NCBI GenBank assembly: GCA_038874215.1
Contig: JAVZCV010000025.1
Span: forward strand, 1-16,732
Reading direction: 5' to 3'
Length of the DNA: 16,732 nucleotides
From: Candidatus Micrarchaeia archaeon
GTDB lineage: Archaea > Micrarchaeota > Micrarchaeia > Burarchaeales > JAVZCV01
Part shown: one piece after another, positions 3,054-6,780 of the stretch
How positions within the stretch are numbered: the first letter of the stretch is position 1
Layout: each line of letters opens with the position of its first letter
Position numbers and translations under genes: made by a program
The notes under the pieces: model-generated
The model's database searches: none
Told to the model about the DNA's origin: nothing
Seen by the model: the letters and a program-made list of their open reading frames with translations, nothing else

Positions 3054-4955
3054 TCATCTTCCGCTGTTGCTTGCCTCAATCATAGCAGCGGTCAAACTCT
3101 CAACAAACCTCAAAGCAGCTTTATCGCTAGGGCCATACATGTTTATACCAAGTATGTCAATAGGCAAAACTATCTCATACTCTCTTCTGCCTGCCGTTAT
3201 CCTTATCCTGTATGTTGGCGTGTCATAAATGCTTTTTCCTTCGCAACCACCCAAAAATGCGGCATTAACAATAGCCCCACTCTTCATCTCAACAGTTACC
3301 GATGTCGGAATCCGCTGTATTGCCTTACCATCCGGCGTTGTTTTTAACTCTGAGTTGAAAGCGAGTGCTCTCCTAACTCCACAACCCATAATTGCAGTAG
3401 CCTGTTCCAAATCCATCCAAGTTGCTTCCTCTCTGGGTGGCGGATTTATCCTTTCATTTCGCATCTCGCCAGGCGTTTTTGGGAGCGTCCTCCCCTCTTG
3501 CGTTTGCGCTCTAATCCCTTCCTCTGGGCTCCATACCGTGCTCCACCTGTATGCGTAATCATGCATTAGGCTCCCATAATCACTCCTATAAGGTCTAAAA
3601 TACCTTCTCCATTCCCTTCCGCTGCAAAGCTCATCATAAACAGCACTCAGACGCCATATGAGCTGTCTCTTAATTTCTTCTATTCTTCGGACTTCTTTCA
3701 CCGCATTCTGGTAATTATCAAAAGAATGCGTTCCATCGCCAAAAGAGTATACTCTATACGCTCTCTCAACTTCACGCTGCATGGCTGTAAGTTTAGCCAA
3801 TATATCTCGCAACACATCCGCCTCCCTCATCAATGCCCTTGAAGTGTATCTCCATAGCTCAACACCTAATAAACTGCTCCTCAGCACCCCATCAACTGCA
3901 TCTGGAGGCAAACTAACATCCCACGTGCACATCCACCTATGTCGCAAATATTCATGATTGACTTCACGCCAATCAACAGGGTTCCAAGTAAGCCCCTCTC
4001 GCCTCTCGTACCAGTTTATGTAATCCCCAAATCTAGCATACGCACCAATCAGCCTCTCAAACTTATTATTGTATGACGCAACATCGTGATAGAGCTTTAC
4101 ATACTGTTCGTATGTTTGCGGGCCTCTCTTGTAAGCAGTAATCATGGCAGATATATGCCGCGATAACCTATCCAAATATCCTCCCACCATGCTGCGATAA
4201 CGCTCAGCAACCTTCGGCGCGAGCTGCATTCCATGCGGGTTTATCTCGCATATCTTCATCTCCTCTTCGCTTATTATCGGTTCAATCTTCTCACGCGGTT
4301 CCTTCTGAACTACTCCGACTTCAGGCGCAGCAGCAGTTGCTGCCGCCGATACATAAACAGCATGTATTGCAGGCGGGCTTGCTGTCTGAGCGTATGCTTT
4401 TTGCTCAGGTGCTGAGAAAACTAGTGTTCCGACAACAGCAGTCATTGCAGCGAAAAGCGATATCCTCACACCCAGTTTCCCTCCTCTATGAACCTTCGCC
4501 GATACAATACTATCACCAAACGCATTAAACTCGTTAGTAGTAGAGGCAGAATTAGGTTCTTTCCTTCTTATCACAATACCTCCATTTGCTGGTAAAACTT
4601 CAACAGTATATCTCCCGCCCAACCGATCCTCCACTGACCTAACAAATGGCTCTACGGGTATGCGGCTACCATCAGAGCATATCGGCACTATCATGCCTCT
4701 CTCAAGAAAAAAACCCGTACTAGCGATATTCCTTGCATCATTTGCAATATCCCTTGCCATATTTCTTGCCTGCGCAGTAAGAGCCTGCGGCTGTTCAAAA
4801 ACACGCTCGGGATAATGGGGGGCAGAGGCTCTTATAACGAACTGCCGGGGTCTATCTGGTTTCATCGGATGGGGTATTCTGGTACTTCTCCCCTCCCCTA
4901 AGCTTGCTTTAATCTTTTGGCTACGCATATGCATAAATGCAGGCGGCTGTCTCAT
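3054..4955 (-). CDS. Large orphan protein with one TM/signal-like segment and a long helical C-terminal region
   Basis: 633-aa ORF filling the gap between genes. Hydrophobic segment ISLFAAMTAVVGTLVFSA is followed by AYA-Q. No family recognised. Confidence 0.8.
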   Translation of the reverse strand: MRQPPAFMHMRSQKIKASLGEGRSTRIPHPMKPDRPRQFVIRASAPHYPERVFEQPQALTAQARNMARDIANDARNIASTGFFLERGMIVPICSDGSRIPVEPFVRSVEDRLGGRYTVEVLPANGGIVIRRKEPNSASTTNEFNAFGDSIVSAKVHRGGKLGVRISLFAAMTAVVGTLVFSAPEQKAYAQTASPPAIHAVYVSAAATAAAPEVGVVQKEPREKIEPIISEEEMKICEINPHGMQLAPKVAERYRSMVGGYLDRLSRHISAMITAYKRGPQTYEQYVKLYHDVASYNNKFERLIGAYARFGDYINWYERREGLTWNPVDWREVNHEYLRHRWMCTWDVSLPPDAVDGVLRSSLLGVELWRYTSRALMREADVLRDILAKLTAMQREVERAYRVYSFGDGTHSFDNYQNAVKEVRRIEEIKRQLIWRLSAVYDELCSGREWRRYFRPYRSDYGSLMHDYAYRWSTVWSPEEGIRAQTQEGRTLPKTPGEMRNERINPPPREEATWMDLEQATAIMGCGVRRALAFNSELKTTPDGKAIQRIPTSVTVEMKSGAIVNAAFLGGCEGKSIYDTPTYRIRITAGRREYEIVLPIDILGINMYGPSDKAALRFVESLTAAMIEASNSGR

Positions 4956-5048: not shown

Positions 5049-5891
5049 ATGATAAACTTACTTAAAAAAGTGGAAGAAGGCCTTCTTACGCTTACATACA
5101 TATCACTCTTGCTTGTTTTACTCTCATGCGTTTTTGGGGTATTCCTCCTATTCGGCCAAGATAAAATCGGTACATCTCTAATCGGAATCTATACAATCGT
5201 TATTCTTCTCCTCCTATCCCTCCTTATTCTCTTAGTTTTTGTTTTTTGGCCCATTATAACAATCCTGCGGTTTTTTTGTTGTATAAGGGAAAGGAAGCTT
5301 GCAATAAACGAGAGCAGGCACGCGATTTTTGGAGCCCTCTTGATATTAGTTGACATAGCCGTTATCGCTCTATTTGCAGCTACCCAGCCAGCAAACGGAT
5401 CAAACAGTATCATTCCAATGATGGTAGGCCTCCTCCTTCTTCTGCTCGCTGCAACTTACATTATGTTTGAAGTCCATTCCTATAATAGTCTATCTTTATT
5501 TGCTGAGCAAACGGGTTTTGACGTTTTGACAGAGGACCGCCCAGCCCTCCTCTCATTCATCTTGCCGAATGTCAAAGCCATAGTAGGAAAGCATGGCGGG
5601 AGAGACTTCACAATCAGCGTAGTGCGAAGGGAAAACAGGGATGTTCTAAAAATTAAGGTGTTTGTAGAAACCCGAAGAGCCGCAGACATCCTCTATGCAG
5701 GCGGGACTAATGAAAAAATGCAAAGCGTATTCAAAAAATACGAGGATATACTACCCGACATACTTTCTTCCTATATGAATGAAGGCGAATTAATTATATA
5801 TGCGAAAGGGGATTTAGATATTGAAGGATTGGGCAAGGTGCTAAATTTCGCAGTAGATGTAGCAAGCATTGTGGAGAGAGAAAAAACATAG
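5049..5891 (+). CDS. Hypothetical membrane protein (about 4 N-terminal TM helices plus a soluble C-terminal domain)
   Basis: 280-aa ORF with four hydrophobic stretches in the first 140 aa. No family recognised. Confidence 0.8.
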   Translation: MINLLKKVEEGLLTLTYISLLLVLLSCVFGVFLLFGQDKIGTSLIGIYTIVILLLLSLLILLVFVFWPIITILRFFCCIRERKLAINESRHAIFGALLILVDIAVIALFAATQPANGSNSIIPMMVGLLLLLLAATYIMFEVHSYNSLSLFAEQTGFDVLTEDRPALLSFILPNVKAIVGKHGGRDFTISVVRRENRDVLKIKVFVETRRAADILYAGGTNEKMQSVFKKYEDILPDILSSYMNEGELIIYAKGDLDIEGLGKVLNFAVDVASIVEREKT

Positions 5892-5903
5892 GGTGTTGGC
5901 AGG

Positions 5904-5916
5904 CTTTTATTTTTTT
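5904..5916 (+). terminator. Oligo-T terminator
   Basis: CTTTTATTTTTTT begins 13 nt after the stop of 5049..5891. Confidence 0.5.
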
Positions 5917-5955
5917 GTGTCTAAATACCGTAAAACATCCAAGGGCCCGTAACTC

Positions 5956-5991
5956 AACCTACGGCCAAATTTAACAGACCGAGGTGTTGAA
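5956..5991 (+). other. tRNA intron 1 (36 nt, position 13/14)
   Basis: Central helix TAAC(5950-53)/GTTG(5986-89), 3-nt bulges TCA and AAA, inner helix ACCT-a-CGG/CCG-AGGT. Excision restores A14-G15 and the G15-C48 pair. Confidence 0.75.
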
Positions 5992-6018
5992 AGCTTGGCC
6001 TAGAGTGCCTGGCTTTTA

Positions 6019-6032
6019 ATTATGAAGAAGGC
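6019..6032 (+). other. tRNA intron 2 (14 nt, canonical 37/38)
   Basis: Strict BHB: helix CTTT/GAAG, bulges TAA and GCA, inner helix TT/AA, with the anticodon stem as outer helix. Confidence 0.92.
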
Positions 6033-6054
6033 ACCAGGAAGCCGCGGGTTCAAA

Positions 6055-6093
6055 TGGCACCTTCCCAATTGGGAAGTTCTTCGCTGATGAAAA
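6055..6093 (+). other. tRNA intron 3 (39 nt, T-loop, position 59/60)
   Basis: Helix TTCA(6049-52)/TGAA(6088-91), AAT bulges, T-stem as outer helix, relaxed inner side (GGC/GCT). Contains the hairpin CTTCCC-AATT-GGGAAG. Confidence 0.82.
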
Positions 6094-6126
6094 TCCCGCC
6101 GGGCCCGCTCTTACTATGGGGATTGC

Positions 6127-6780
6127 ATGAAGGAACTTTTTGAGGGAGTTTATCTGATTGAAGGAAAACTCGCAACAAAAAACCTTTCCCCAGGTTTCCG
6201 AGTTTACGGAGAAAAACTCGTAAATGTCGGCGGAGCAGAATACCGCTTCTGGGATCCTTACAGAAGCAAGCTTGCAGCCGCCATAAAGAATGGGCTCAAA
6301 ACTCTTCCGATAAAAAGAACCGCACGAGTGCTATACCTTGGCGCAGCGAGCGGGACAACGGCTTCCCATGTCTCCGATATCATAGAAAAGAACGGTGTTG
6401 TATTCTGTGTTGAATTTGCTCCCAGAGCAATGCGGGATTTGCTCAAAGTCTGCGAAAAGAGGGAAAACATGGTACCGATACTTGCGGACGCGCGGATGCC
6501 AGAAAGCTATTCAGATATAGGAAAGGTTGATGTCATATATGAGGATGTGGCACAACCAGAGCAGGCGGAGATAATGGTCAGGAATGCAAGCCGCTTTCTA
6601 GTTAAAAGCGGTTGGGCTATGATCGCTATAAAGTCCCAGAGCATAGACGCCGTTCGGGATGTTGAGGAAACCTTTAAAAATACCGTTTCTGAATTAGAAG
6701 AGACATTTGATATTGTTGAGAAAATCCGTCTTGAACCATACGATAGGGCGCATCTTTTCCTTCTAATGAGCTATCGGTGA
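6127..6780 (+). CDS. flpA: Fibrillarin-like rRNA/tRNA 2'-O-methyltransferase
   Basis: Contains VYGEKL, EYRFWDPYRSKLAAAI, VLYLGAASGTTASHVSD, EDVAQPEQ and LEPYDRAH motifs. Confidence 0.97.
   Translation: MKELFEGVYLIEGKLATKNLSPGFRVYGEKLVNVGGAEYRFWDPYRSKLAAAIKNGLKTLPIKRTARVLYLGAASGTTASHVSDIIEKNGVVFCVEFAPRAMRDLLKVCEKRENMVPILADARMPESYSDIGKVDVIYEDVAQPEQAEIMVRNASRFLVKSGWAMIAIKSQSIDAVRDVEETFKNTVSELEETFDIVEKIRLEPYDRAHLFLLMSYR

Follow-up and report, generated by a model that had tools for sequence, protein, structure and literature searches.

The DNA analyzed here, called the window in what follows, is a stretch of 16,732 nucleotides (nt) constituting the whole of contig JAVZCV010000025.1 (C25) in assembly GCA_038874215.1, a metagenome-assembled genome of a tiny, uncultivated archaeon of the Micrarchaeota that comprises 1.13 Mb in 38 contigs, with 45% GC and 91% completeness. 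A public sequencing run containing the locus is labelled as a hot-springs metagenome. On the forward strand the window holds a gene for tRNA-Lys(UUU) that is divided into four exons by three introns, one in the D-arm, one in the anticodon arm, and one in the T-arm. Such a structure had been proposed from the bare DNA letters, with introns of 36, 14, and 39 nt accounting for 89 of the 165 nt, and this original prediction proved exact to the base. Reading of the sequence and slicing by script gave the following features:

5943-6107, forward strand: tRNA-Lys(UUU) gene, 165 nt, four exons and three introns
5943-5955, forward strand: exon 1, 13 nt, tRNA positions 1-13 (5' strand of the acceptor stem, positions 8-9, 5' strand of the D-stem)
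5956-5991, forward strand: intron 1, 36 nt, at 13/14, the junction of D-stem and D-loop
5992-6018, forward strand: exon 2, 27 nt, positions 14-37 (11-nt D-loop, 3' strand of the D-stem, position 26, 5' strand of the anticodon stem, anticodon loop up to A37)
6015-6017, forward strand: anticodon TTT, within exon 2
6019-6032, forward strand: intron 2, 14 nt, at the canonical position 37/38
6033-6054, forward strand: exon 3, 22 nt, positions 38-59 (3' strand of the anticodon stem, variable loop, 5' strand of the T-stem, T-loop TTCAAA)
6055-6093, forward strand: intron 3, 39 nt, at 59/60 in the T-loop
6094-6107, forward strand: exon 4, 14 nt, positions 60-73 (T60, 3' strand of the T-stem, 3' strand of the acceptor stem, discriminator G)

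The joined exons (13 + 27 + 22 + 14 nt) form a 76-nt cloverleaf with stems of 7, 4, 5, and 5 bp. Its acceptor stem pairs GGGCCCG with CGGGCCC over 7 bp and its D-stem ACTC with GAGT, the 11-nt D-loop containing GG; the anticodon arm combines CCTGG/CCAGG with the loop CTTTTAA (anticodon UUU, with U33 and A37), the variable loop has 5 nt, and the T-arm reads GCGGG-TTCAAAT-CCCGC. No CCA is encoded after the discriminator base. The cutting rule originally put forward, after the second bulge nucleotide, does yield this canonical structure, and the product spliced in our script is named tRNA-Lys(ttt) by ARAGORN. GC content is 64% in the exons, 44% in the introns, and 45% in the genome as a whole.

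Splice Motifs at the Three Introns

In the archaeal bulge-helix-bulge (BHB) motif, the 5' cut and the 3' cut each follow, at a distance of two positions, a run of four nt, and these two runs pair with each other. All three introns present this geometry, with both cuts placed after the second nucleotide past the respective helix strand. At intron 1 the central helix joins 5950-5953 (TAAC) to 5986-5989 (GTTG), with cut sites TC|A and AA|A; at intron 2 it joins 6013-6016 (CTTT) to 6027-6030 (GAAG), with bulges TA|A and GC|A; and at intron 3 it joins 6049-6052 (TTCA) to 6088-6091 (TGAA) by four Watson-Crick pairs, with bulges AA|T and AA|T. The claim that each intron carries a 4-bp helix flanked by 3-nt bulges stands, the helix being valid in 12 of 12 pairs (10 Watson-Crick and two G-U), with the qualification that not all of the bulges are closed on both sides. 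All 33 listed pairs are either Watson-Crick or G-U; they comprise those of the acceptor, anticodon, and T stems, those of the three central helices, and those of the helix on the intron side of intron 1.

The flanking helices differ from one intron to the next. Intron 1 has a 4-bp helix on its intron side (5957-5960 with 5982-5985) and none on the exon side, which is the relaxed HBh' form as defined in the available text of PMC3488258. Intron 2 is flanked on the exon side by the 5-bp anticodon stem and on the intron side by only 2 bp. Intron 3 has the 5-bp T-stem on its exon side, and its intron-side helix is shifted by 1-2 nt. The motifs of introns 1 and 3 are thus of relaxed form. An alternative splice register was considered and rejected: The sole slide that gives an identical product, by one A rightward at intron 1, has no central helix.

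The introns also contain self-complementary elements of other kinds. A perfect 16-nt palindrome, CTTCCCAATTGGGAAG, lies at 6061-6076 and constitutes the inner hairpin of intron 3, as seen both from its self-reverse match and from the fold. The hexamer GGCCAA of intron 1 (5963-5968) has its complement, TTGGCC, in the part of exon 2 that forms the D-loop (5995-6000), and this pairing dominates the predicted minimum-free-energy (MFE) structure, in which it competes with the splice motif of intron 1.

Detection of Interrupted tRNA Genes in the Genome

ARAGORN reports no tRNA gene in the window, and Rfam gives no tRNA match there at gathering score, nor any at E ≤ 10 on positions 5850-6200, as anticipated by the suggestion that standard tools would miss this gene. 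In our own splice-aware scan, candidate introns of 10-170 nt had a 4-bp central helix next to another helix of 3 bp or more; the search was anchored on the T-arm and walked through the cloverleaf with up to four jumps, and ARAGORN was applied to the spliced product. Over the genome the 784,671 candidate introns listed by the scan led to 11,734 raw solutions, among which 21 loci, with scores of 43-48, were confirmed as tRNAs by ARAGORN. The tRNA-Lys(UUU) gene was recovered with exactly the same three introns and the top score of 48, tied with two other tRNAs. Three solutions beyond the confirmed loci score above 41, including Gly-GCC and Arg-CCU, and look like further real tRNAs. In a control with reversed sequence (five contigs, 435 kb of the 1.13 Mb), candidates with up to three introns reached at most 36; four-intron solutions attained 46, so four-intron calls of the scan are unreliable. 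From the 784,671 candidates, approximately 2.3 Mb of strand, and 161 lengths, we estimate that a random pair of positions would match the geometry of intron 1 in about 0.2% of cases.

Interruption is frequent among the 21 recovered genes: Three have no intron, 10 have one, five have two, and three have three, which amounts to 29 introns in 18 interrupted genes. The three-intron layout is consequently not unique to tRNA-Lys(UUU), for at least two other tRNA genes of the genome share it. These are Ser-GCU (C1:111736-111934, forward strand) and Val-GAC (C12:29235-29406, reverse strand), each with three introns including one in the D-arm and each confirmed by ARAGORN after in-script splicing. The gene for Gly-GCC (C4:38431-38617, forward strand; score 46, three introns, not confirmed by ARAGORN) is a candidate for a further case. 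By themselves, ARAGORN and the Rfam tRNA models find only 15-16 tRNAs in this 91%-complete genome.

There are also loci at which ARAGORN misplaces the intron. The gene at C6:39441-39554 is called "tRNA-Stop(tta)" where motif-guided splicing gives Gln(ttg); that at C1:68719-68810 is called Gly(ccc) and reads as Arg(ccg); and that at C13:20247-20377 is called Ser(cga) and reads as Thr(cgt).

The DNA structure of the tRNA-Lys(UUU) gene is supported by a contig from a separate, per-run assembly, which spans 5625-6500 at a depth of 10.3 with no gaps and no differences inside the gene; the three differences that it shows (5888, 5892, and 5921) all lie upstream. The run in question may be the sample of origin, and its contig is accordingly not a fully independent witness. 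Being free of gaps, and of differences inside the gene, this contig nevertheless indicates that the gene structure is not an artefact of assembly.

Splicing Enzymes, Promoter, and Need for the Gene

A relaxed-specificity splicing endonuclease had been expected from the introns, and the enzyme encoded by the genome agrees with this expectation. There is a single EndA locus, on contig C2 (L001:895-2052), with a product of 385 amino acids that matches the Pfam family tRNA_int_endo (E 1.9e-30). Its residues 5-385 align with the epsilon2 EndA of ARMAN-2 (PDB 4fz2, E 1.3e-138), whereas for the structures ranked next the match is confined to the catalytic unit. Tyr160 and Lys161 of the ARMAN-specific loop, as well as the catalytic residues Tyr236, His251, and Lys282 (4fz2 numbering), are identical; the names of these residues follow the accessible portions of PMC12397907 and PMC3488258. 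Judged from its sequence, the protein is of the three-unit epsilon2 type. The ARMAN-2 protein is described, in excerpts of PMC3239211, as a homodimer that cuts both strict and relaxed motifs, and as cleaving in vitro a strict motif at 37/38 and a relaxed one at 59/60; therefore, the positions of introns 2 and 3 are demonstrated substrate positions for enzymes of this type. A gene for the RtcB ligase is found on contig C11 (E 4e-177).

These elements suggest the following course of events. Transcription would produce a precursor of 165 nt plus a leader and a trailer. The homodimeric EndA of epsilon2 type would recognize a strict or relaxed BHB motif at each intron and cut two nt past either strand of its 4-bp central helix, and RtcB would then join the four exons into the 76-nt cloverleaf, to which CCA would be added afterwards. 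A putative promoter element lies upstream:

5904-5916, forward strand: A/T-rich box CTTTTATTTTTTT, putative archaeal TATA element, about 27-39 nt 5' of tRNA position 1

This box was recognized by eye, and A/T boxes resembling it stand at comparable distances upstream in relatives; it may act as the promoter. Scanning for sigma-70 promoters and intrinsic terminators returned 0 sites, with models that do not apply to archaea.

No second gene for tRNA-Lys(UUU) was found in the 91%-complete genome, either by short-word BLAST of the spliced product or by the scan, a check that the original prediction had called for. The only other lysine tRNA found has the anticodon CUU (C2:26439-26527) and a 14-nt intron at 59/60, and the next-best scan solution with anticodon UUU, scoring 39 with four introns, is within noise. 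Among 532 long open reading frames (ORFs), AAA occurs 36.2 times per 1000 codons and AAG 29.9 times; since AAA is the commoner of the two, a decoder with UUU is needed.

Orthologues and Intron History

Related loci were collected in two ways. Forty genomes belonging to the same order or class were searched by BLAST with positions 5900-6160, which matched 30 of them and left 19 stored loci, while a scan with the exact pattern of an unsplit 5' half of the tRNA retrieved 32, all titled Candidatus Micrarchaeota, Micrarchaeia, or Anstonellaceae; the resulting 51 include some duplicates between the two sets. The splice-aware scan called tRNA-Lys(UUU) in 35 of these loci, of which six are intronless, 17 have a single intron, and 12 have two (4, 13, and 12, respectively, in the 29 called loci left after removal of identical sequences). 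Intron positions in these relatives are 37/38, 42/43, 56/57, 58/59, and 59/60. The remaining 16 loci were read by eye: Two of them (L016 and L017) have one insertion in the T-loop and the other 14 have one at 37/38 and a second in the T-loop, inside which L020, L025, and L046 come to their end. Hence, the 37/38 and T-loop positions of the studied gene are also occupied in its relatives.

The spliced product is identical in 69-74 of 76 nt to the 16 distinct mature tRNA-Lys(UUU) sequences of relatives, the nearest orthologue sharing 74. In 29 of the 51 loci the gene for fibrillarin follows the tRNA on its 3' side, as it does in the window, and many of the remaining loci are too short to tell. 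Product identity and fibrillarin synteny together indicate that the gene at 5943-6107 is the orthologue at its usual place.

The intron in the D-arm has a different distribution. It is present in none of the 19 loci found by BLAST, and its absence from the 32 pattern loci holds by construction; moreover, a pattern made of exon 1, a gap of 20-50 nt, and exon 2 found 0 matches in a collection of genome contigs and in another of metagenome contigs. The intron at 13/14 is, in consequence, most likely a lineage-specific gain. Across the phylum, Lys(UUU) orthologues with 0, 1, 2, or 3 introns form a natural series in which the gain and loss of introns could be studied, with position 13/14 occupied only here.

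In some relatives the introns share a sequence module. The module CCCTTTTT...CGCTCCAGATGG opens both Lys(UUU) introns of L030 and is found in the same way in L035, L054, L025, and L046; it is seen at 37/38 and at 56/57 in these relatives and is absent from the studied gene.

Functional Gene or Remnant?

We consider it very probable that 5943-6107 is the single functional gene for tRNA-Lys(UUU), the precursor of which would carry three introns spliced by proteins. Several results weigh against this conclusion and have to be considered together. The scan, stricter than tRNAscan-SE or SPLITS, is incomplete, with 21 confirmed tRNAs where approximately 45 would be expected, and a second Lys(UUU) gene may sit in the part missing from a genome in 38 contigs. 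Among the three public runs listed, one of which contains the locus, none is on record as RNA. In free folding of the precursor, the conformer that displays all three motifs has an energy of -52.2 kcal/mol, against -64.0 kcal/mol for the MFE structure, and the mean pair probability of the central helix at 37 °C is 0.006 for intron 1 and 0.032 for intron 2. In nascent 5' fragments, too, the motif of intron 1 lies 3.7-5.7 kcal/mol above the MFE, and this is the intron that lacks an exon-side helix. In addition, we found no literature report of an epsilon2 enzyme cutting an HBh' substrate in a D-arm; in the available parts of the sources, in vitro substrates are described at 37/38 and 59/60 only.

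The folding results do not bear equally on the three introns. The central helix of intron 3 has a mean pair probability of 0.85 at 37 °C and its motif is present also in the MFE fold. For all three introns these probabilities change little at 60 °C or when the precursor is partly spliced, and calculations of this sort, which treat the RNA as free, leave both the enzyme and the body of the tRNA out of account. The weakness of the helix at intron 2 is inherent, because the UUU anticodon makes positions 32-35 CUUU, and the orthologous 37/38 introns of relatives have central helices that are equally weak or weaker. Intron 1 is another matter: Unlike that of intron 2, the weakness predicted for its helix is a real concern.

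The likeliest of the alternatives holds that introns 2 and 3 are spliced and that the 36-nt insertion in the D-arm is not a competent substrate for EndA, so that the locus would be a recently inactivated copy, or one depending on some other processing route, with a working gene in the unassembled 9% of the genome. The missing exon-side helix, the pair probability of at most 0.006, the lack of any D-arm intron in related Lys(UUU) genes (0 in the two collection scans and 0 of 19 BLAST loci), and the 91% completeness all speak in its favor. Yet a 4-bp central helix, an adjacent 4-bp helix on the intron side, and the correct 2-nt offsets are found exactly where the cloverleaf places the junctions, a coincidence expected by chance in only about 0.2% of cases; the exons are undecayed, with 74 of 76 nt as in the nearest orthologue, and BLAST revealed no second copy. 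Besides, Ser-GCU and Val-GAC also possess D-arm introns in addition to two others, and introns in this arm are evidently tolerated by the organism. We regard this alternative as unlikely.

A dead tRNA gene that has accumulated three unrelated and unspliced insertions would account for the fact that standard tRNA models do not score the locus and for the lack of RNA among the listed runs (0 of 3). However, all three insertions sit in splice motifs, and the exons are conserved and GC-rich in a way that the insertions are not. The syntenic place upstream of fibrillarin has been kept, the gene is the only decoder found for an abundant codon, and interruption is the norm in a genome where 18 of 21 recovered tRNA genes have introns, all of which makes a pseudogene very improbable. 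As to chimeric joins or a contig from another organism, for which the source, a metagenome-assembled genome in 38 contigs, gives some reason, the per-run contig described above, with its differences confined to the upstream region, and the match of both the fibrillarin neighbor and the tRNA exons with Micrarchaeota relatives render them barely conceivable.

Relationships with Known Systems

The three-intron layout of a tRNA gene, the epsilon2 type of enzyme, and the lineage to which the organism belongs have all been described already, the layout being rare but known. The closest parallel is Candidatus Micrarchaeum acidiphilum ARMAN-2, the disrupted tRNAs and epsilon2 EndA of which are presented in the accessible text of Fujishima et al. 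2011 (PMC3239211) and Hirata et al. 2012 (PMC3488258). It belongs to the same phylum-level lineage and has a three-unit EndA; introns are placed at 37/38 and 59/60, some motifs are relaxed, and standard finders overlook the genes. It differs from the present case in that at most two introns per tRNA, both in the T-loop, and a share of 56% disrupted genes are described in the same portions of PMC3239211, whereas the studied genome has a gene with three introns, one per arm and including an HBh' form in the D-arm, and 18 of 21 recovered genes interrupted. We found no paper stating that a tRNA of Micrarchaeota has three introns, but the supplementary ARMAN tRNA tables of PMC3239211, which lay outside the search, may contain such cases; the "three introns" mentioned in the available part of PMC5498576 refer to the whole Mia14 chromosome and not to one tRNA.

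The other parallel is with Thermoproteales, for which three introns per tRNA are the stated maximum (PMC4390854 and PMC4033280, in part). Examples are tRNA-Glu(UUC) of Pyrobaculum calidifontis and tRNA-Pro(UGG) of P. islandicum, reported by Sugahara et al. 2007/2008 as summarized in extracts of the same two papers. Likewise, the literature we could access agrees with the original prediction that multi-intron tRNAs occur mainly in Thermoproteales and ARMAN-type archaea. Common to Thermoproteales and the studied archaeon are a maximum of three introns of BHB type, their placement at canonical as well as noncanonical positions, and an endonuclease of broad specificity. Thermoproteales, however, are Crenarchaeota and have a heterotetrameric (alpha-beta)2 EndA carrying a Crenarchaea-specific loop, while the enzyme of the studied archaeon is predicted to be a homodimer of epsilon2 type with the ARMAN-specific loop. 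Their introns, moreover, form sequence families that suggest transposition (PMC4033280 and PMC4090602, as far as available). A mobile family was rejected for the present introns, which match nothing in the genome or in relatives: In blastn-short searches of the genome, of the 29 introns from all 21 recovered tRNAs, and of the 51 related loci (74 kb), they gave only short matches at chance level. A eukaryotic nuclear tRNA gene resembles the locus in that a single tRNA has all three arms interrupted by one intron each, but depends on a eukaryotic endonuclease and has no evolutionary link to it.

In terms of evolution and enzymology, the D-arm intron raises a specific question: How would the epsilon2 enzyme handle a motif that is hardly ever pre-formed? 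It is possible, if on the doubtful side, that an essential tRNA encoded in single copy has recently acquired, in this lineage alone, a 13/14 intron whose motif has no exon-side helix and, according to the folding model, is present in fewer than 1% of free precursors, so that efficient splicing would need an enzyme able to capture or induce it. The stacked acceptor stem, cotranscriptional folding, and ordered splicing could help in such capture. If this proposal were true, the range of the epsilon2 enzyme would exceed the substrates tested to date, those at 37/38 and 59/60, and the known maximum of three introns per tRNA would extend outside Crenarchaeota. The gene shows that Micrarchaeota with an epsilon2 endonuclease attain the extreme of Thermoproteales, with three introns in one gene and one per arm. 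The weak D-arm motif would also be a useful new substrate for probing how far epsilon2 specificity extends. There is also a practical consequence for annotation: Neither ARAGORN nor the Rfam tRNA model detects the sole decoder found for the common codon AAA, so that an automatically annotated tRNA set would show a gap that is not real.

Neighboring Genes and Other Observations

A resemblance to C/D-box small RNAs (sRNAs), for which euryarchaeal tRNA-Trp introns are the case of comparison, was examined for intron 3 and rejected. No match to a C/D-box model with C, D', C', and D boxes inside the intron was obtained. The best hit, to sR47, has 15.9 bits where the gathering score is 40 (E 0.17); it extends over 6083-6145, from the end of intron 3 through exon 4 into the start of the fibrillarin gene, and is probably due to chance; the UGAUGA within it is imposed by the splice motif (TGAA plus AA).

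The tRNA gene is followed at a short distance by a neighbor that is conserved in this phylum and is not part of it:

6127-6780, forward strand: fibrillarin gene, 20 nt 3' of the tRNA (Pfam PF01269, E 3e-88)

Cotranscription of tRNA-Lys(UUU) with fibrillarin is possible. Also adjoining the tRNA is an ORF of 633 amino acids on the reverse strand (3054-4955), which has no Pfam family at E below 0.03. The ORF lying directly upstream on the forward strand (5049-5891, 280 amino acids) was considered as a candidate for Nop5 and discarded, as it has no Pfam match below E 0.03 and no PDB match below 0.028. Nop5, the usual partner of fibrillarin, is encoded elsewhere in the genome, at C36:2715-3374.

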